From IMG/VR virus record IMGVR_UViG_2579778666_000005: a stretch of 8,473 nt of DNA; one strand, given 5' to 3'. This document shows positions 2-8,473 of the stretch, in pieces (position 1 is the stretch's first letter; every line of letters begins with the position of its first letter). Made by a program: the position numbers and the translations under genes. The notes beneath the pieces are model-generated. The model was not told where the DNA came from. It saw only the letters and a program-made list of their open reading frames with translations, and did no database searches. The DNA comes from a virus. Lineage: Duplodnaviria; Heunggongvirae; Uroviricota; Caudoviricetes.

Positions 2-19
2 TAATGCCAGTCAGTTAAG
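2..19. repeat. IS4 terminal inverted repeat (end distal to the transposase start)
   Basis: taatgccagtcagttaag; matches the reverse complement of 1410..1427 (taatgccgatcagttaag) at 16 of 18 positions. Confidence 0.85.
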
Positions 20-1343
20 CAACTGACTGGCTCTTTTTCGGGGCTGTGGGGTATTTCCAGGGCCTCTCCTTTACCACTCTCGGGAAGGCCCTTTCCCTTC
101 TTGTCGGTAATTTCACAAGTTGTCCCATACTTGCAAGATCGCGCATCAGCTCCGGTATACGTCCCGGTGAAGCGCCCTGCAATGTCATCAGCATTCTCAT
201 CACCATTCCGCATGATTCTGAGAAACTCAGTTGATTCGGCCAGTAACCTTTCAGATGTTCCGCCATTTTAATCATCTGATATCTCACCAGATTATAAGCC
301 AGTAAGACACCCCACAGCTCTTGCTCCACAAGCTCCGGCTTTTTACTTCTCAGCGTCAGCCTGCTCCGTTGCATCGTCTGTTTTATCTCCCTGTATCCCA
401 GTTCGATTTCCCAGCGATGACTGTACAGATCCCCCATTTCTCCTCCGGGGAAGCGCATGGCGTCCGTCATCGACGTCAGCAGATGGCAGACTTTTCCTTT
501 GCGCGTCACGGTCAGCAGGCGGGCAGTCACTTCATTTCCCAGTCCCGGCCACTTTTTTCGTGCCTGCGGGCTGGTTTTCAGCTTCACCAGATGATCGCCT
601 TTACCCAGTTTTCTGATCTCTTCATATTGCGCTCCCTTTCTGAGAGGTATCATCCAGTGGCGGTGTTCTCCCGCCAGGCTCCAGGCATTTAACAGTCCCA
701 GTGAGTAATAACCTTTGTCCATTAACGTCAGAGTGTTATCGCCGGTTTGTTCTATAAGTTGCTCAGCAAGCTCATTTTCGCTGTTCTTCATCGTGCCGAA
801 GGCTGCAGCCGTCAGCAGATGGCTGGTCAGTTCCATCTGGCAGACCATTTTGACCTGCGGGTAGAGCGCCGGGTTCCCGGCATGTGTCTGGCGGGGGAAG
901 GCTGCATCGTTCTCTGGTGTATCCGGTGTGCGCCAGAACACACCATCGATGGCCAGCAGGGTCAGGCCGCACCAGTGCGGATGCGGCGTGGCGTTATGCC
1001 AGAGCTGCGCTGTTTTCGTGAACACGCGGCGGACAGCCTCACTTCCCAGGCGCTGGCGGGCCTGAATAACGGCACTGGGGGCAACGAAGGGGCGATTGCC
1101 CGGCAGCATGATGTCCAGGCGATTCACAATCTGGTGAAGAGGTTCTTTACGCTCAAGCGCCATGCCAACAATACACCAGACCATCATTTCGAGGGGAAGA
1201 CGGCGCTTGCGTAGCGTTACAGTACCTGATTCGGCAAGGCAACGAGAGATGAGTTCGGGGTCGAGGTAATCCCCCAGAGAAGTCAGTGGGTTACGCAGAG
1301 AATCGTAACGGGATACCAGATCAAGAGCCTGTCCAATGTGCAT
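15..1343 (-). CDS. insG: IS4 transposase (DDE family), 442 aa
   Basis: The track ORF 15..1361 begins at a TTG. The first ATG is 6 codons in (1341..1343) and gives [40 protein letters not shown]..., which is the IS4 InsG N-terminus as I recall it. Resulting length is 442 aa. Confidence 0.92.
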
Positions 1344-1409
1344 AAAAAAATCCGGAAACAAGTGAGCGTTTCCGGATTCTTACACAGCCACTGGATCGGT
1401 CAACTGATC

Positions 1410-1427
1410 CTTAACTGATCGGCATTA
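1410..1427. repeat. IS4 terminal inverted repeat (end proximal to the transposase start)
   Basis: Reverse complement taatgccgatcagttaag pairs with 2..19 (16/18). Confidence 0.85.
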
Positions 1428-1461
1428 CCTTCAAAGAGGCGGTTTATGTTATCCCATTGGA

Positions 1462-3105
1462 TTAAGATCTACATTCAACTAAAAGGTACACTAATGGACG
1501 TTCTGGCGTCCCATTCTTCTTTGCAACAAAAGCAGATATTTTGTGTTTTGCTATTTTTTGCTTGAGTTTTTTACATAACACTTTGTTTATATAACCAAGT
1601 TTCCCGCTCTCATGAACAACAGCTATAGCATGTGGATCAACCGGGTTATCCTCTTCAGGAACAAGCTTGACCAAATCACCGACCATTACTTTCGACAAAT
1701 CAAGCCCTTCCTGATAACGAGTTCCTGCCACTTCAAAAAGAAGCTCACCTTCACTATTAAGAATTTCTGGATCTGGCACCAAACAAAAACCATCGCCAGG
1801 TGATTTTGCTCCTGTATATCCTAACAGCGCAAAATCAGAGCCTTCAAATGGATGGGGGAGCAAATGTTGAGCCAGATACTCAGCAAAGTCTTTTCTTTTC
1901 CGTGGTGGTAAACGCCGAACAAACGGGTCAAGCACGTTGTTCGTATGTTCTTCACTTTTCAGACTAAATGCGGGATGTCCTGCAAACCCTTTCTCTTGGG
2001 CTTTAGCATAATCTTCTGACTGAAAATGGTATGTGAAGACGTAGTTATCCCCTTGCTGACGATCAATCTGACCAACAACATAACGAGTACCGCCTGTGGG
2101 TGGCTGCCATGTAAGAAGCAACCGAGTAGGCTCCATTATTCTGTTTATAGTACGCATATTTAGAATCAGTGATAACCTTAGGTATCTACGCCTCAATAAA
2201 CGAATCGTCCAATCCGCTCGTTCCCTAGTGAACGGCACATCGGAGCTAATTTCGCAAAGTGAATCTATCTTGTCGACCAGTTCCTGAAAATCAAATTCAA
2301 GTCTCCGGGCCAAGTACGCTTTTGACTGCTCATCAAGAGCCAAATCCTGTATAGAAGAAATATGACCTAATCGTTCATGCGTGTCTGCCCGATTCTTCCG
2401 CAAATGATGACAACCACGCTGTATGTATTCATCTACATTTTGATGGTTCCATCCTCTGATCCTCTCTACATACCTTTCATGCCCCAAACTAGTACCATTA
2501 TCGAAATATGGTGCGAGATATCCCTTCACTTTAGGTGGCGTTATGCCTGGTGCAGATTCAGGTACAAAAACAAAACCCCAATTCTCTTGGTGTCTATCAC
2601 TATTACCGATGAGCGCATCAAAAAGCAGCATATCGTAAAGCCATTGGATCCAGTCTGGAGAGATCAGGCCGCGGATACTAAAAGCCCTACAAATTAAGCG
2701 TAGATCAACAAGGTTATGGTGTCTTCCGGAAGAGTCATCAAAATCCGATATCAACACATGAAAAAAATCAGACGCATGAACAAATAACTGGCTACTTTGA
2801 TCGTAAAACCACTCAAGCAAAGCTCCATATTCGTATTCACCGTTCTCCATCATTCTTCGCGCTGGCAATGCTTTAGGAACAGGAACGCCCATAACATCTC
2901 CAACTATATAAGCAACGGTTTCCATCCAGTACTGATCGGGATAAGCATCTCTTGAGAGTTTAAAAAGATAAGGCCATTCCGGTTTTATCCCCTCAGGAGC
3001 ATCATTCGGTGACCAAAGCATTTTTTTATCCCTCGCTCCTCGAGGAAAAATGCCATGCTCATCATCTTTACGCCAACTAGTTACATCTATTAAATTGATA
3101 TCCAT
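1462..3105 (-). CDS. HipA-like (PI3/4-kinase-fold) protein kinase domain fused to a C-terminal HIRAN domain, 547 aa
   Basis: ATG start at 3103..3105, TAA stop at 1462..1464. Catalytic-loop-like motif LIGNSDRHQENWGF at about residues 164-177 (GNxDxHxxN, HipA_C-like) followed by APYFDNG at about 198-204 (HipA YD-like metal-binding motif). C-terminal NPVDPHAIAVVHESGKLGYINK at about 487-508 resembles the HIRAN signature (NPxDxNAI ... G..GY). Start lies 9 nt downstream of the preceding gene's stop, so probably co-translated. Visibly AT-rich. Confidence 0.8.
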   Translation of the reverse strand: MDINLIDVTSWRKDDEHGIFPRGARDKKMLWSPNDAPEGIKPEWPYLFKLSRDAYPDQYWMETVAYIVGDVMGVPVPKALPARRMMENGEYEYGALLEWFYDQSSQLFVHASDFFHVLISDFDDSSGRHHNLVDLRLICRAFSIRGLISPDWIQWLYDMLLFDALIGNSDRHQENWGFVFVPESAPGITPPKVKGYLAPYFDNGTSLGHERYVERIRGWNHQNVDEYIQRGCHHLRKNRADTHERLGHISSIQDLALDEQSKAYLARRLEFDFQELVDKIDSLCEISSDVPFTRERADWTIRLLRRRYLRLSLILNMRTINRIMEPTRLLLTWQPPTGGTRYVVGQIDRQQGDNYVFTYHFQSEDYAKAQEKGFAGHPAFSLKSEEHTNNVLDPFVRRLPPRKRKDFAEYLAQHLLPHPFEGSDFALLGYTGAKSPGDGFCLVPDPEILNSEGELLFEVAGTRYQEGLDLSKVMVGDLVKLVPEEDNPVDPHAIAVVHESGKLGYINKVLCKKLKQKIAKHKISAFVAKKNGTPERPLVYLLVECRS

Positions 3106-3114
3106 ATCTTACGG

Positions 3115-3666
3115 TTACCCAGCTAATGCACGGAAAGCAGCACTAACATAAGCTACCTGAAACTTTGCATCTCGAAGCGCATGATGCGCATCAGTAACAT
3201 TAATGGAAAAATTTGCCCTTACATCAATATTCTTAAGGCTTTTAGCTAGTTCAACGATGGTACGCACGTCTCGATCATTTCGAAAACGCCATGGGATATT
3301 TTGCGCATGTTTACGGTAAACCGCTGCCAATATAGCGTTATCAAAGCTTGCCCCATTCCCCCAAACTTGTACGTCATCGTTACTACGACTTCGTACAAAT
3401 AGAGAAAATTCTTGTAAGGCTTCATGTAAGTCAACAGCAGACGGGTCATTAAAAACCGCCCTTGCAGAATCGCTTTGTATCATCCACCACTGTAAAGTTT
3501 TTGGGTCTACAAAACTATTTTCCAATGCAGATGATAGGGTTATAACTCTATAAAACTCATCCCCACACTTGCCAGTCAGAGGCTCAAAGAACACAGCGCC
3601 GATTGAAATCAAAGGAGCATCCATTGACACACCTAATGTTTCTATATCGAGCATTAAATTATTCAT
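3115..3666 (-). CDS. DEDDh-family 3'-5' exonuclease (DnaQ/RNase T-like), 183 aa
   Basis: ATG at 3664..3666 preceded by a strong SD (ggaggttaa ATG). All three exo motifs are present: Exo I LDIETLG (D8, E10), Exo II GNGASFDNAIL (D109), Exo III HHALRDA (H161-x4-D166). Stop TAA at 3115..3117. Confidence 0.82.
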   Translation of the reverse strand: MNNLMLDIETLGVSMDAPLISIGAVFFEPLTGKCGDEFYRVITLSSALENSFVDPKTLQWWMIQSDSARAVFNDPSAVDLHEALQEFSLFVRSRSNDDVQVWGNGASFDNAILAAVYRKHAQNIPWRFRNDRDVRTIVELAKSLKNIDVRANFSINVTDAHHALRDAKFQVAYVSAAFRALAG

Positions 3667-3806
3667 TTAACCTCCACCCCAGACATAGCTCAGGGAAACG
3701 TAACCTATTGAAATAACGAATCAAGTATTTGTCACATTCTATACTAAAACATTCGAATTCCAAAACTTCAGCTTTTGCAACCCCTTACAAGTCAATTGAT
3801 CCATAA

Positions 3807-3826
3807 TACTGTATACATACACAGTA
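3807..3826. promoter_or_regulatory. LexA (SOS) box in the intergenic region between gene A and the exonuclease/kinase cassette
   Basis: tactgtatacatacacagta matches the E. coli LexA consensus TACTG(TA)5CAGTA at 18/20, with CTG and CAG separated by 10 nt. It lies about 140 nt upstream of the exonuclease ATG on the coding side. Flanking sigma70 hexamers are ambiguous: TTGACT at 3790..3795 and TAGAAT near 3737..3742 are both plausible pieces but not correctly spaced with each other. Confidence 0.7.
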
Positions 3827-3844
3827 CTACATTTGAAAAACAAA

Positions 3845-6121
3845 TCAAGGGAAATCATTAAAACCCGGCCAATCACAACAAGGCGGATAAACAAATTTTT
3901 TCATGTCATAAATAACTTCTGCCCCACGAGCCAGCGCCTCAAGCTCCCATCTCTGAGGCCTGATACCGTTCTGAGCAAGGTCAACGCGGATACGGGTGAT
4001 TTGCAATCGTTCAGACCGGGTCAGTCTGGCCGATGGTGCAATTTCATGCGGTTTTAACGGGCTTCCGTTTCTTTGCTGACGGTTTGGTCTTCTCAGGCCG
4101 TATTTTAATGCACCTCTGAGCGCCCTCACGACCTCCGGGTCATTCCATTCGATAACACCGTCATCAACCAGATTAAGCACTGCTGCGGCGTGCTCAGAAG
4201 GTTTGGGAGCCGTTAACGAAGTATCACTGCCGGTGAACTTTCCACAGTTATTGACAGGACTCCGAGGCGCGGCGATGCCGCTTTTTAAAGTCAAAGGCTC
4301 AACGACCGGAACTTTCGGCACAATGCGCCAGTCCGTCGTTCTGGTGATATGAATATGACGCGCGCCGAGATGCGGCGCGTAAATGCCGACCACTCTCTCG
4401 ACTTCTTCCTCGTACTCGTTAACGTCATCCGACGGGCTACGGGCGACTCTGACAGTCTGACAATCGCGCGGAACATTTGCCCCACCCTGCGCGCTGATAT
4501 ACAACGCAAAATCACCACTGTCTGCGGCAGCGCGAGCAGCCTCGACGCGTTCGTCAAACTCATCAGCAATACTGACGCCGCGAGGCAATTTGCGTAGTTC
4601 ACGGTAAGCCCCCATTGTCGGCAGTCCAACCGTTTTAAATTGCGGGATGCGCCACGTTGACGCCCATGCGGTAACAGCCGCGGCAGTATCTTTAAGCGGC
4701 TTACCGGTATCGTTATCGAGCTGACCATCCAGTGCATAGCCGTCGATATTTTTTGAAATGTATTTCGCGATATATCCCGCAGCACCGCCCCGGTTAAGGT
4801 GTTTTGCCTGAAAACGGTTTCGCGCGGCTCCTCTTTCGTCGCCATCCTCTTTGAGCGCATAGCGACGCATGATTTCAATAATCTGGTTACGCTGGCGTGG
4901 ATTACAAAAAAGCATCATATGCCAGTGCGGCGTTCCGTCGTGGTGTGGTTCAACAACACGCAAACCGTAGGCCTGTAAATCATTATCCTTGAATGCCGTG
5001 CGCATCAGGCTCCAGATACGGCAGAGATAACGCTGCGCATCCTTTGGATTAAATGCCTCATCATTCCAGCCGTGATTTAGCTGGACGGTTTTACTTTCGC
5101 CTTTTCTGACCTGACGTGTCGGGTGATACTTTGACGGCGCGGTCAGCGTGATAAACATCCCCACATCACCCTCTGCGGCAGCGTAACGCTCAATACCGGC
5201 GATGGTGTTCATCAGCTCCATCCGGCGAATTTCTGGATTAGAAATACTGCCCATCACCTTACTGATAAGGTCGATGCGCTCGCCGGTTTCCCTGTTTTCA
5301 AGGTCACACGATTTAAGAAATTCCAGATTTGCCTGGCGGCGCGCACGCACATCACGAATGGCATGTTTACTGGCATAAGGAGAACGGTCTTTATTGACCT
5401 CCCCGACAGCAATCAGTAACGCCTCATGCCAGCGCATACGCTGGCCTTTAAGCTGATGAGTCCACCATTCATCGTTAAACAGACGGGCAATGGCAGAATA
5501 TGCCTGCCTCGTGGTCATCTGCCCTTTACGGTATTTTTTCCAGTAGAGCGGAGAAATATTGAAAGCACGTGCAGCGCCAGCAACATGACCATAGAGGTGA
5601 GCCTGCGCCTCATCCGTAAACAGCGATTCTTTTTCGCCATGCGCATCCACCCAGGCATCGCAGAGTTCCTCATACATCATGAAAAGCTGCGATGAGATAC
5701 GGGCGGCAAACTTTTTCAGCTCCTTATCATTCATCCCCGGCAGACGCGCATAATGGTCACGCTCTGCCAGAAACAGCAACGACGCGTCGGTGTTCATTTC
5801 ATGGCGCTGATTCACACGCTCAATGCGCGGCCATAAACGACGCTGAAAAGTGGATGTGAGGAAATAAAACCCGTGCACCGGGCTTTTATTGCGCCGGATG
5901 TAGTCATAGCGTGAAGTAAACAGCGAGCGCAAAAAGTAAGGCAGGCGGTTAATCGTGGATAAAACACCTTGCACCTGACGCATCTCGTCACGTGTAAGGG
6001 GTCTTTCGCGCCCGACGGCCTCGCGTGGCGCGTTCCATGCATAAGCACCGGTAAACGTCTTACCGGTGCCTGCGGCAAATGCTGACGGAGGGACAAAACG
6101 CCCGGAGGCTTTAACGGCCAT
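3845..6121 (-). CDS. A: P2-type replication initiation endonuclease gpA (HUH rolling-circle Rep), about 758 aa
   Basis: HUH motif PHWHMMLF (codons for HWH at 4919..4927) and a double-tyrosine motif GYIAKYISK (Tyr codons at 4772..4774 and 4760..4762). N-terminus MAVKASGRFVPPSAF... from the ATG at 6119..6121 matches my recollection of P2 gpA. The track start at 6163 is a TTG that would overlap the upstream gene by more than 50 nt; I prefer the ATG. Confidence 0.88.
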   Translation of the reverse strand: MAVKASGRFVPPSAFAAGTGKTFTGAYAWNAPREAVGRERPLTRDEMRQVQGVLSTINRLPYFLRSLFTSRYDYIRRNKSPVHGFYFLTSTFQRRLWPRIERVNQRHEMNTDASLLFLAERDHYARLPGMNDKELKKFAARISSQLFMMYEELCDAWVDAHGEKESLFTDEAQAHLYGHVAGAARAFNISPLYWKKYRKGQMTTRQAYSAIARLFNDEWWTHQLKGQRMRWHEALLIAVGEVNKDRSPYASKHAIRDVRARRQANLEFLKSCDLENRETGERIDLISKVMGSISNPEIRRMELMNTIAGIERYAAAEGDVGMFITLTAPSKYHPTRQVRKGESKTVQLNHGWNDEAFNPKDAQRYLCRIWSLMRTAFKDNDLQAYGLRVVEPHHDGTPHWHMMLFCNPRQRNQIIEIMRRYALKEDGDERGAARNRFQAKHLNRGGAAGYIAKYISKNIDGYALDGQLDNDTGKPLKDTAAAVTAWASTWRIPQFKTVGLPTMGAYRELRKLPRGVSIADEFDERVEAARAAADSGDFALYISAQGGANVPRDCQTVRVARSPSDDVNEYEEEVERVVGIYAPHLGARHIHITRTTDWRIVPKVPVVEPLTLKSGIAAPRSPVNNCGKFTGSDTSLTAPKPSEHAAAVLNLVDDGVIEWNDPEVVRALRGALKYGLRRPNRQQRNGSPLKPHEIAPSARLTRSERLQITRIRVDLAQNGIRPQRWELEALARGAEVIYDMKKFVYPPCCDWPGFNDFP

Positions 6122-6386
6122 ATGAGCCAAAAGCCTCTGAACAACGCTTGCTGAGTTGCTCAACCTGCGCGTTTAAATCAGCAAAAGACTTTGCGCTTCC
6201 GGTCAGAATATCGTGATGCATCAGGCCGGAAACAAGCTGGCTTAATTTCGGGTAATAACCAACCACCGCCAGCCATTCCTGACCGGCGTTTTTACCGCTT
6301 TCCGCTCTCTTTTTCTCGTGGAGAATAAACTGGAAGCTGTCACTGGTAACGACATAACGTTCGCCAATTTCAATACGAATACTCAT
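6111..6386 (-). CDS. Small conserved early-operon protein, 91 aa; by position the P2 orf83 equivalent
   Basis: ATG start with a GGAG SD 7 nt upstream; ATGA start/stop overlap with the upstream ORF; its 3' end overlaps the gene A start. Function unknown. Confidence 0.7.
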   Translation of the reverse strand: MSIRIEIGERYVVTSDSFQFILHEKKRAESGKNAGQEWLAVVGYYPKLSQLVSGLMHHDILTGSAKSFADLNAQVEQLSKRCSEAFGSYGR

Positions 6387-6607
6387 GCCGTTCTCCGGTA
6401 ATGTTTGTTTTTTGCTTCAAAGACTGACTGACAGGAAACACAACGCGTGGCTGACGGATAAGCCGCACGACGGGCAGCAGGTATTGGCGCGTCACACTCT
6501 TCGCAAACCAGCGCAGAAGCACCGCAATGTTTACCCCTTGCCGCGTTAATCTGGCGCTCCAGTAATTCAGCCTGTTGTTCCTGAATAAAATCTACGTTGT
6601 CCGGCAT
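6383..6607 (-). CDS. TraR/DksA-family C4 zinc-finger protein, 74 aa; by position the P2 orf82 equivalent
   Basis: CxxC-x17-CxxC (CEECDAPIPAARRAAYPSATRCVSC) in a short protein with an acidic N-terminal helix; strong SD (aaggag) 7 nt upstream of the ATG. Confidence 0.75.
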   Translation of the reverse strand: MPDNVDFIQEQQAELLERQINAARGKHCGASALVCEECDAPIPAARRAAYPSATRCVSCQSVFEAKNKHYRRTA

Positions 6608-6609
6608 TA

Positions 6610-6909
6610 TCAGCTCCTTTTATCGTTAAGTTTCCTGGATACATCAGCGCAATAACTGGCGAGTTCTGTCGTTAATTTTGTCAGTTCATCCACTGAGGAA
6701 ATTTGCTTGTGGAATACAGCGCGTTTAACAAGTAAATTGACCACATCAGACAGGAGGTTTAATTCATTCTGATAAATCGCGATAACAGATTCAGTGATGT
6801 CGCGTTTTTCTTTATCAAGACAAAGTTGAATAAGAGACAAATCGCCATTTTCCATAACGGCGATTTTTAAGGCGTTATTCAGTAATACAACTGAATGAGA
6901 ACAGGACAT
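6610..6909 (-). CDS. Hypothetical early-operon protein, 99 aa; by position the P2 orf81 equivalent
   Basis: The track start at 6912 is TTG. The adjacent ATG at 6907..6909 has a GGAGG SD about 9 nt upstream and overlaps the upstream stop (TGATG). Confidence 0.65.
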   Translation of the reverse strand: MSCSHSVVLLNNALKIAVMENGDLSLIQLCLDKEKRDITESVIAIYQNELNLLSDVVNLLVKRAVFHKQISSVDELTKLTTELASYCADVSRKLNDKRS

Positions 6910-7133
6910 CAAAGTACCTCCCCACGAGACAATCCGATATTGTGAAATTTTTCCGACTCCTGACTGAGCAGCTCGACTATCTCCACGCGGGATAACTCCG
7001 CCTTTGTGATGTGGCGAATCATGGCGTCAAGATGAGAAGAAAAGCGCGTCGCAGCGTCAGCCTGTGCTTCGGTTCTGGCCTGTTGCAGCAGTAATGCGTA
7101 TTTACCGCACTGATTTTCAGAAACTGTATGCAT
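6909..7133 (-). CDS. Hypothetical early-operon protein, 74 aa; by position the P2 orf80 equivalent
   Basis: ATG at 7131..7133 with a GGAG SD 8 nt upstream; same strand and operon context. Confidence 0.65.
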
Positions 7134-7196
7134 AATTTTCTCCAGGCAAAAAGAAGCCCCGCACGATTAAGTGCGTTTAAAACTCTGGTTAATTAT

Positions 7197-7697
7197 TTAA
7201 TGCAGATATTGCTCTGGTTTTACCGACGTCAGAATTGTCGGTGCATACTCAAACAGGCTGAATAATTCACGTAATGCACGGAATAAAGCATCACGCCAGT
7301 AACATGACTCTTCATTAATTCGCCAGTATGGCTGGTTGAATTCTTTTTCAGTCAATCCGGCATGCATAAATAAAGTACGACGCTGACTGACTGTTAAAAA
7401 ACTAATATATGCATACTCACTTGCGCCAACCTGACGGCGTTTTGAGAATGCCCCACGCAATTCATCAATTGCACAAACCAGCCGTTCACGTTCGACGTCG
7501 TTCATTTCTTCAAAACGCATCGTTGCATGACGTTGTTTTAACTGCGCATGAAAGCAAACCGTTAGCCGTTCGCGTTCCATCATCTGATTATAATAATCAC
7601 ATGTATCCTGCCAGCGAGGGACGGCCAGATGCTTACCAATTATCCGGCGCATAGCTGCTGGCTGTTTTTCAACGAGATTAAGCGTCATCACTGTCAT
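7197..7697 (-). CDS. B: P2 gpB-like replication protein (helicase-loader role in P2), 166 aa
   Basis: Length 166 aa and N-terminus MTVMTLNLVEKQPAAMRRIIGKHLAVPRWQD... match my recollection of P2 gpB. GGAGGG SD 9 nt upstream; ATGA overlap with the upstream ORF. Confidence 0.8.
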   Translation of the reverse strand: MTVMTLNLVEKQPAAMRRIIGKHLAVPRWQDTCDYYNQMMERERLTVCFHAQLKQRHATMRFEEMNDVERERLVCAIDELRGAFSKRRQVGASEYAYISFLTVSQRRTLFMHAGLTEKEFNQPYWRINEESCYWRDALFRALRELFSLFEYAPTILTSVKPEQYLH

Positions 7698-7864
7698 TTC
7701 CAGACCCTCCGGCTTTTCAGAAAGGTCAGAGCCTTCTTTAACGGACTCTGTTTTTTGGTGCGGATAATGATTCCCTTGCGTCCCTTCCCGTGGGTGATGG
7801 TGAAGTCAATCGCCCTGGGGCTTTCGTTACGCAGTAACTGAGCAATACAACGCGGTTCACTCAT
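7694..7864 (-). CDS. Small basic protein, 56 aa from the ATG at 7864 (65 aa if 7891 is used); by position possibly the P2 orf78 equivalent
   Basis: Lys/Arg-rich C-terminus. The ATG at 7862..7864 overlaps the stop of the truncated upstream ORF (ATGAGTGA), typical of translational coupling. The ATG at 7891 has no SD and an in-frame stop just upstream. Confidence 0.5.
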   Translation of the reverse strand: MSEPRCIAQLLRNESPRAIDFTITHGKGRKGIIIRTKKQSPLKKALTFLKSRRVWK

Positions 7865-8033
7865 AATCACAACCCCATCCACAAAAGCCATGCATCACGC
7901 TGTTCAACTGGTCGGTTATAAAACGCCTCTCGTACAGCGCGATTAAACTCTGGAATGAAAACCCACTTCTCACCGACACGGGCGTTCGGCTTACTTGGAT
8001 CACGAAGCTCAATAACTGGCAATTTATTCTCTT
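7857..8033 (-). pseudogene. 3' fragment (58 codons plus stop) of an early-operon gene truncated by the IS629-like insertion; possibly a cox-like first gene
   Basis: One minus-strand frame is open from the IS junction (8033) to a TGA at 7857..7859, giving KRINCQLLSFVIQVSRTPVSVRSGFSFQSLIALYERRFITDQLNSVMHGFCGWGCDYE*. It has no start codon in the prophage-derived sequence. The sequence does not match my recollection of P2 Cox, so identity is uncertain. Confidence 0.4.
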
Positions 8034-8087
8034 TGAACCGCCCCGGGAATCCTGGAGACTAAACTTCCTGAGAAAGAGGTAAACAGG

Positions 8088-8414
8088 ATGACTAAAAATA
8101 CTCGTTTTTCCCCCGAAGTCCGTCAGAGGGCGATTCGTATGGTTCTGGAAAGTCAGGGCGAATATGACTCACAGTGGGCGGCAATTTGTTCCATTGCCCC
8201 AAAGATTGGCTGTACACCGGAGACTCTGCGTGTCTGGGTACGCCAGCATGAGCGGGATACCGGAGGCGGTGATGGCGGGCTCACCACCGCTGAACGTCAG
8301 CGTCTGAAAGAGCTGGAACGTGAAAATCGTGAACTGCGCCGCAGTAACGATATCCTTCGCCAGGCTTCCGCTTATTTTGCGAAGGCGGAGTTCGACCGCC
8401 TCTGGAAAAAATGA
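8088..8414 (+). CDS. IS3-family transposase OrfA (HTH and leucine-zipper part), 108 aa, IS629-like
   Basis: [85 protein letters not shown]... matches IS629 OrfA as I recall it to within a few residues. ATG with an upstream GAGG/AGG. Confidence 0.9.
8406..8411 (+). other. Putative programmed -1 ribosomal frameshift slippery run (A6) at the orfA/orfB junction
   Basis: gg aaa aaa tga: the A6 run at 8406..8411 sits immediately before the orfA stop with orfB open in the -1 frame. This is the arrangement IS3-family elements use to make the OrfAB fusion transposase. Confidence 0.5.
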
Positions 8415-8473
8415 TGCCACTGCTGGATAAGCTGCGTGAGCAGTACGGGGTCGGACCGCTATGCAGCGAACTG
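8411..8473 (+). CDS. IS3-family transposase OrfB, 5' end only (truncated by the window), in the -1 frame relative to OrfA
   Basis: [21 protein letters not shown] begins at the ATGATG at 8411, overlapping the orfA stop; classic orfA/orfB arrangement. Confidence 0.8.

Follow-up and report, generated by a model that had tools for sequence, protein, structure and literature searches.

The window analysed here, that is, the whole stretch of 8,473 nucleotides of virus record IMGVR_UViG_2579778666_000005, contains the boundary between a P2-family prophage and an IS629-type element, and we conclude with strong confidence that the cox gene of this prophage, which is Wphi-like, was interrupted between its codons 35 and 36 by a very recent transposition of the element. 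As judged from its sequence, the prophage is almost certainly non-productive. The element occupies the right-hand end of the window and has the following features.

8034..8473, plus strand: IS629-type element, first 440 bp; it runs past the end of the window, the full element being 1310 bp
8034..8058, plus strand: left terminal inverted repeat (IRL), aligning with the annotated 25-bp repeat of the AP000422 IS629 with 1 mismatch
8088..8414, plus strand: IS orfA, 108 aa, HTH_Tnp_1 match (E 1.8e-12), equivalent to CDS H0117 of IS629 and transcribed away from the prophage
8369..8473, plus strand: ALIL frameshift pseudoknot in the orfA/orfB overlap, Rfam RF01497, 93.4 bits (gathering score 50), its 3' end cut by the window
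8411, plus strand: start of orfB, from the alignment to the AP000422 IS629

When the sequence from 7400 to 8473 was read, the left end of an IS629-type (IS3-family) element, TGAACCGCCCCGGGAATCCTGGAGA, was found to begin at position 8034, and the first base of the mobile element annotated as IS629 in VT2-Sakai (AP000422) aligns with this same position. Over 8034..8473 the identity to the AP000422 IS629 is 97.5% (11 mismatches in 440), to the IS629 of phage BP-4795 it is 98.0%, and to unnamed IS3-family copies in E. coli, including those on E. coli plasmids, it is 99.6%, so that the element in the window is nearer to the plasmid copies than to the O157 IS629 copies. Isoforms of IS629 were taken to have at least 95% nucleotide identity to the reference, and the element lies above this value over the 440 bp that can be compared, which is its first third. 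A ribosome-binding site precedes orfA, between the start of the IS at 8034 and the ORF at 8088. The predicted coding arrangement, an orfA with a helix-turn-helix (HTH) and, overlapping its end, an orfB expressed through -1 frameshifting, is that of the IS3 family. An IS629-like insertion had been proposed in the first-pass annotation and this was right, as the terminal repeat, the 97.5% identity, the HTH_Tnp_1 match of orfA and the ALIL pseudoknot all agree.

On the phage side of the junction lies the early operon, the genes of which are listed here from the junction inwards.

7867..8033, minus strand: cox 3' fragment, codons 36-90 and stop; Phage_Cox match, 100% identical to the intact cox of five E. 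coli prophage loci (L022 to L026)
7694..7864, minus strand: orf78 homologue, 56 aa, second gene of the early operon, transferred from Wphi gp78
7197..7697, minus strand: replication gene B, 166 aa, Wphi gpB; Phage_RepB on the identical protein in relatives
6909..7133, minus strand: orf80 homologue, from the ORF list, order and size as Wphi gp80
6610..6912, minus strand: orf81 homologue, from the ORF list, order and size as Wphi gp81
6383..6607, minus strand: orf82 homologue, from the ORF list, order and size as Wphi gp82
6111..6386, minus strand: orf83 homologue, from the ORF list, order and size as Wphi gp83
3845..6121, minus strand: replication endonuclease gene A, 758 aa, last gene of the operon, ATG at 6121; exact protein in intact prophages, Phage_GPA

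From 7600 to 8033 the window is 98.2% identical in nucleotide sequence to phage Wphi across gpB, gp78 and the cox fragment. The order of the early-operon genes is the same as in Wphi and in more than 20 prophage loci, that of orf80 to orf83 being shared with the relatives, and by its sequence the prophage is classed as Wphi-like, of the P2 family (Peduovirus). The downstream synteny expected of the Phage_Cox family (orf78-B-orf80-83-A) is present in the window, and this remainder of the operon is intact and identical to that of functional-looking prophages. When called mechanically, orf78 extends as far as the ATG at 7891, with a length of 65 aa, and shares sequence with the end of cox, and in the annotations of the identical prophages orf78 is given as 56 aa, as 65 aa or is omitted. 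A scan for terminator-like sites from 3800 to 8100 gave 17 hairpins with a T-run, compared to 4.9 +/- 1.8 in shuffled sequences; these sites are on both strands and mostly inside genes.

The first-pass annotation had described an open minus-strand frame running from the IS junction into the prophage and had taken it for a 5'-truncated gene, possibly cox-like. The open frame exists, but by itself it is no proof of a gene since two of the three minus-strand frames are open there; it is homology that decides, and the gene is cox, with homologs in Wphi and in intact prophages, to whose cox 3' part it is 100% identical. The fragment matches Pfam Phage_Cox (PF10743) with 54.7 bits (E 9.4e-15, against a gathering score of 27.5 bits) over profile positions 33-87 of 87, and a full-length relative covers positions 7-87. 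When the cox of Wphi was transferred by pairwise alignment, it corresponded to 7867..8139 of the window, were the gene uninterrupted, and this alignment is collinear to 8034 and then breaks. The phage sequence and the IS end both have a T at 8034, which is the first base of cox codon 36; taking the canonical TG as the start of the IS, the break is placed at 8033/8034, where the phage homology stops. In the intact sequence the insertion site reads ...ATTTATTCTCTT up to the break and TTACCATCTTGAC... beyond it, on either side of the boundary between codons 35 and 36. Some details of the earlier reading needed correction. The stop codon was said to be a TGA overlapping the next ATG, whereas the real cox stop is the TGA at 7869..7867, 2 nt before the orf78 ATG at 7864..7862 (TGAttATG); a second in-frame TGA at 7863..7861 does overlap this ATG and is probably the one that had been seen. 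The start coordinate 7857 belongs to the stop of another, non-coding minus-strand frame and not to that of cox. The interval 7892..8033 was rejected as a reading frame, as it derives from the mechanical ATG at 7891 and Wphi gp78 corresponds to 7694..7864.

What remains of cox is 55 of 90 codons, codons 1-35 being gone. Read on the minus strand from 8031 (8034 if the shared T is counted), the frame translates to KENKLPVIELRDPSKPNARVGEKWVFIPEFNRAVREAFYNRPVEQRDAWLLWMGL*, and when it is extended into the IS it meets an in-frame TAG after 8 codons. There is no in-frame ATG or GTG in the fragment or in its extension into the IS up to this TAG, and the fragment has no plausible start codon. An intact relative was aligned to the P2 Cox structure 4LHF, and the break maps to P2 Cox residue 32/33, so that the C-terminal 55 residues of the remnant align with P2 Cox 33-87. 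P2 Cox has the fold beta1-alpha1-turn-alpha2-beta2-loop-beta3-alpha3-alpha4, with a winged HTH in its N-terminal half and R29/R30 in helix 2; most alanine substitutions in this HTH abolish complementation of a cox-defective prophage, and the loss of Cox alone blocks excision (PMC3936717). In P2 Cox, the lost residues 1-35 have their counterpart in residues 1-32, which make up beta1-alpha1-turn-alpha2 including R29/R30, and only beta2-wing-beta3-alpha3-alpha4 is retained. Thus, the N-terminal winged HTH half by which the Phage_Cox family is recognized is absent. Because this half is missing and there is no start codon, we predict with high confidence that the prophage is Cox null, and because the HTH is absent and the frame enters the IS and hits a stop, the cox of the window is classed as a pseudogene and not as a functional member of the Phage_Cox family.

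The five intact loci mentioned above were found by means of the exact gpA protein; they include OZ039781.1, CP165335.1 and CP170299.1 and are E. coli prophages next to cpxP. Look-ups with B and with the 183-aa protein described below likewise gave intact prophages among the loci listed. By local BLAST, the window from 1428 to 8034 is identical to these five loci in 6607 of 6607 nt. The intact relatives have a 90-aa cox, a divergent intergenic region of about 150 bp (Pe/Pc), C (97 aa) and int (326 aa), as in Wphi. The first-pass annotation had placed C and int of P2 beyond cox, and that is where the 100% identical intact prophages carry them; from the window they are absent, as are the cox start, the cox ribosome-binding site, the Pe/Pc switch and attL. 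Because the flanking phage DNA shows zero divergence over 6607 nt, the insertion is dated by sequence as very recent. No match to the near junction was obtained in 5,426 complete E. coli genomes or in phages, for which the 774 bp across the junction and the whole window served as queries, nor in a one-genome-per-species set, IMG/VR or JGI metagenome contigs, and the junction-specific gene calls (a 51-aa cox remnant starting at TTG, a 35-aa chimeric plus-strand ORF and a 51-aa alternative frame) have none on record; by these searches the IS629/cox allele is private to its source. A search of the literature for IS629 in cox of a P2-like phage found nothing. Beside the 100% identical intact prophage of one of the five loci (L026), a different IS3-family element lies between yiiM and cpxA (2126..3474); it was considered as the donor and rejected, being unrelated to the IS of the window. 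Another locus (L007, 10501..11100) is apparently without orf80 to A. Because of this other IS3-family element and the loss in L007, independent decay of this prophage family seems frequent.

In P2, Cox acts as a repressor of Pc and as the directionality factor when Int excises the prophage, and Pe, just upstream of cox, is the early-operon promoter that serves the replication genes B and A as well. A Cox-null prophage would therefore be unable to repress Pc or to direct excision by Int, and B and A, which are needed for replication, would be separated from Pe either by 1.3 kb of untranslated antisense IS, the polarity of which would be strong, or by a deletion. The transposase genes of the IS point away from the early operon. 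A consensus scan, which weak or hybrid promoters would escape, found no sigma-70-like site on either strand from 7600 to 8473, nor did a scan of the same kind and with the same limit find one in the complete reference IS629. The best hybrid promoter that could be built by hand across the junction, TTCCCG-17-TAAATT, agrees at 7 of 12 positions, and the single promoter-like site inside B (7614..7587) is below expectation, as 1 was found against a chance mean of 5.0. The outward -35 element known in IS3-family members (IS911/IS2/IS3) is at the right end and not at the left. Because the IS replaces the promoter region, its transposase points away and no sigma-70-like site was found, the early operon has very probably lost its promoter. 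The earlier suggestion that the replication operon probably lacks its native early promoter is thus borne out, the Pe/Pc region being absent and neither the orientation of the IS nor the scans providing a replacement. If the insertion is a simple one, Pe would be over 1.4 kb upstream, with antisense IS RNA that is not translated in between, and Rho-dependent polarity would be expected. No antisense intrinsic terminator is predicted in the reference IS629, and for this reason there may be, with a simple insertion, a small read-through from Pe into orf78-B-A.

An IS bounds the prophage segment on its opposite side, too:

2..1427, minus strand: complete IS4, 1426 bp, with terminal repeats TAATGCC(A/G).. 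at 2 and 1427 and a Nterm_IS4 + DDE_Tnp_1 transposase

Homology to the intact prophages begins at 1428. This IS4 sits in the terminator hairpin after the HIRAN gene of the cargo cassette, where the relatives run on to the portal gene Q, so that what can be seen of the prophage is 6.6 kb long (cargo cassette, A, orf83-80, B, orf78 and the cox remnant) and lies between two unrelated IS. The first-pass annotation had called the prophage likely defective; the loss of cox function and of the promoter support this, and the complete IS4 strengthens it. The window begins 1 nt outside IS4, and this base is a g, as expected for a continuing prophage or for a target duplication of 11-12 bp, which is weak evidence, being one base with a 1 in 4 chance of agreeing. 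Were IS4 a simple insertion, one would expect to the left of base 1 a target duplication of 11-12 bp, CCTTCAAAGAG(G), and next to it AAAAAACCG... from the Q side. The IS4 junction was not found in viral contigs. Loss of cox and of the link between Pe and the replication genes, together with IS4 between the cargo cassette and the late genes, would lock the prophage in the chromosome.

The cargo cassette (1462..3666, minus strand) lies in the P2 variable region between A and Q. Its first gene encodes a 183-aa DEDDh/Rv2179c-like 3'-5' exonuclease, and its second a 547-aa protein, the N-terminal half of which matches PADLOC PDC-M03A (HipA-like) and the C-terminal half PDC-M03B (HIRAN). Because each half matches one component, two candidate defence components are predicted to be fused in this protein. 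The cassette is common, and 7641 blocks of the collection list the exact 183-aa protein. A strong LexA-box-like palindrome, TACTGTGTATGTATACAGTA, is present at 3807..3826, after the stop codon of A and before the gene for the 183-aa protein; it contains an exact CTGT-N8-ACAG at 3809..3824, matches TACTGTATATATATACAGTA at 18 of 20 positions and is a predicted LexA box. A second exact CTGT-N8-ACAG is present at 1812..1827, inside the gene for the 547-aa protein, and the 2 exact occurrences in the window compare with 0.09 expected by chance. The proposal that the cassette downstream of A has its own LexA-box region therefore holds, by sequence match, and with this region retained the cassette would not depend on Pe. 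One may imagine that the two IS insertions have grounded the prophage, that is, that excision and replication are blocked and the host keeps the SOS-controlled cassette as a fixed chromosomal defence locus. We consider this improbable, and if it were true it would be an early and datable step of prophage domestication, at zero divergence from the active phage.

How the element came to lie in cox can be read in more than one way. The preferred reading is a simple insertion. Target-site duplications of IS629 and other IS3-family elements are 3-4 bp, and from these known duplications and the junction the following feature is predicted, provided that the insertion is simple:

8031..8033: CTT, predicted 3-bp target-site duplication

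A simple insertion would then predict that the 1310-bp IS is followed by ...GGGGCGGTTCA-CTT-TTACCATCTTGAC... and by the rest of cox, C and int, the far junction reading GGGGCGGTTCA CTT TTACCATCTTGACTACAGCC... and continuing with cox codons 35 to 1, Pe/Pc, C and int. This far junction, searched for as a pattern and with a synthetic 404-nt query, was not found in 5,426 complete E. coli genomes, in the one-genome-per-species set or in JGI metagenome contigs. That it was met in no collection searched would fit the alternative that IS629 instead borders an IS-mediated deletion or inversion, by which the 5' part of cox, Pe/Pc, C, int and attL are gone or moved and a 6.6-kb remnant is left stranded, but the near junction, which the window does contain, is likewise absent. 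Such a rearrangement would also agree with a segment bounded by two different IS exactly at their ends and with a window that has neither late genes nor immunity genes, and in E. coli rich in IS, it is well known that IS629 gives rise to adjacent deletions. Against it stand the 0 substitutions in 6607 nt relative to the intact prophages, and also, weakly, the base to the left of IS4, which fits a continuing prophage. Given how recent the event is, and since a simple insertion is what one would assume by default as the first step, we favour it as the likelier of the two, and regard a deletion or rearrangement bordered by the IS as a serious contender, possible though less probable.

Two further readings concern how much was lost. 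A functionally mild insertion, in which only Cox is lost and the operon is still expressed after derepression, by read-through from Pe or from a weak outward or hybrid promoter, would be in line with the lack of an intrinsic terminator-like structure on the antisense strand of the reference IS629, and IS3-family elements do activate neighbouring genes in some contexts. However, no promoter-like site faces the operon, the best hybrid has the poor agreement given above, the 1.3-kb untranslated stretch would be expected to cause polarity, and even then the loss of Cox would already block excision (PMC3936717), and we therefore think this reading unlikely. Least probable of all, to the extent that we give it hardly any weight, is an artefact of assembly in which a contig was falsely joined or ended in repeats and the real prophage is intact. 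The window does start 1 nt outside IS4 and end inside IS629, as a repeat-bounded contig would, and its junction is absent from every collection searched. The break, however, interrupts a unique gene in its middle and falls, to the exact base, on the terminal TG of IS629, which is the signature of transposition, and chimeras from collapsed repeats join within shared repeats, of which cox has none in common with the IS.

All of the components belong to well-described families (IS629, IS4, cox and a Wphi-like Peduovirus prophage) and mechanistically there is nothing new in the locus; disruption of prophage genes by IS is commonplace in E. coli and the decay of the prophage is of a routine kind. 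For annotation, we recommend a cox pseudogene, interrupted by IS629, within a P2-like prophage in which IS4 is present as well, and the prophage should not be counted as intact or inducible. Owing to the 100% identity to intact prophages, the locus is a clean case of a prophage inactivated very recently by IS, and it offers a natural cox-null, Pe-detached background for studying the cargo cassette with its LexA box. Beyond annotation it has little import and makes no open question testable; its only mildly interesting angle is that the lesion can be dated as very recent and may fix an SOS-linked cassette in the chromosome.

When compared to known systems, the element resembles the AP000422 IS629 in its first base, its orfA, the orfA/orfB overlap and the ALIL pseudoknot, and differs from it at 1 position of IRL; IS1203 and IS3411, of the IS3 family, are isoforms of IS629. 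Annotated copies of IS629 are also present inside other prophages, namely the Stx2 phage VT2-Sakai and phage BP-4795, and the insertion site in the window was met nowhere else in the collections searched. The five intact prophages are 100% identical to the window in the cargo cassette, A, B, orf78 and the cox 3' part, whereas they are free of both IS; in them one side continues with the full cox, C and int, and the opposite side with the portal, terminase and late genes. Finally, the copy in the window lies upstream of orf78-B like the cox of Wphi and P2, in the place where the early operon would begin, but whereas wild type Cox is 90-91 aa long, this copy is truncated at its 5' end and is without the HTH half, the start codon and the promoter.
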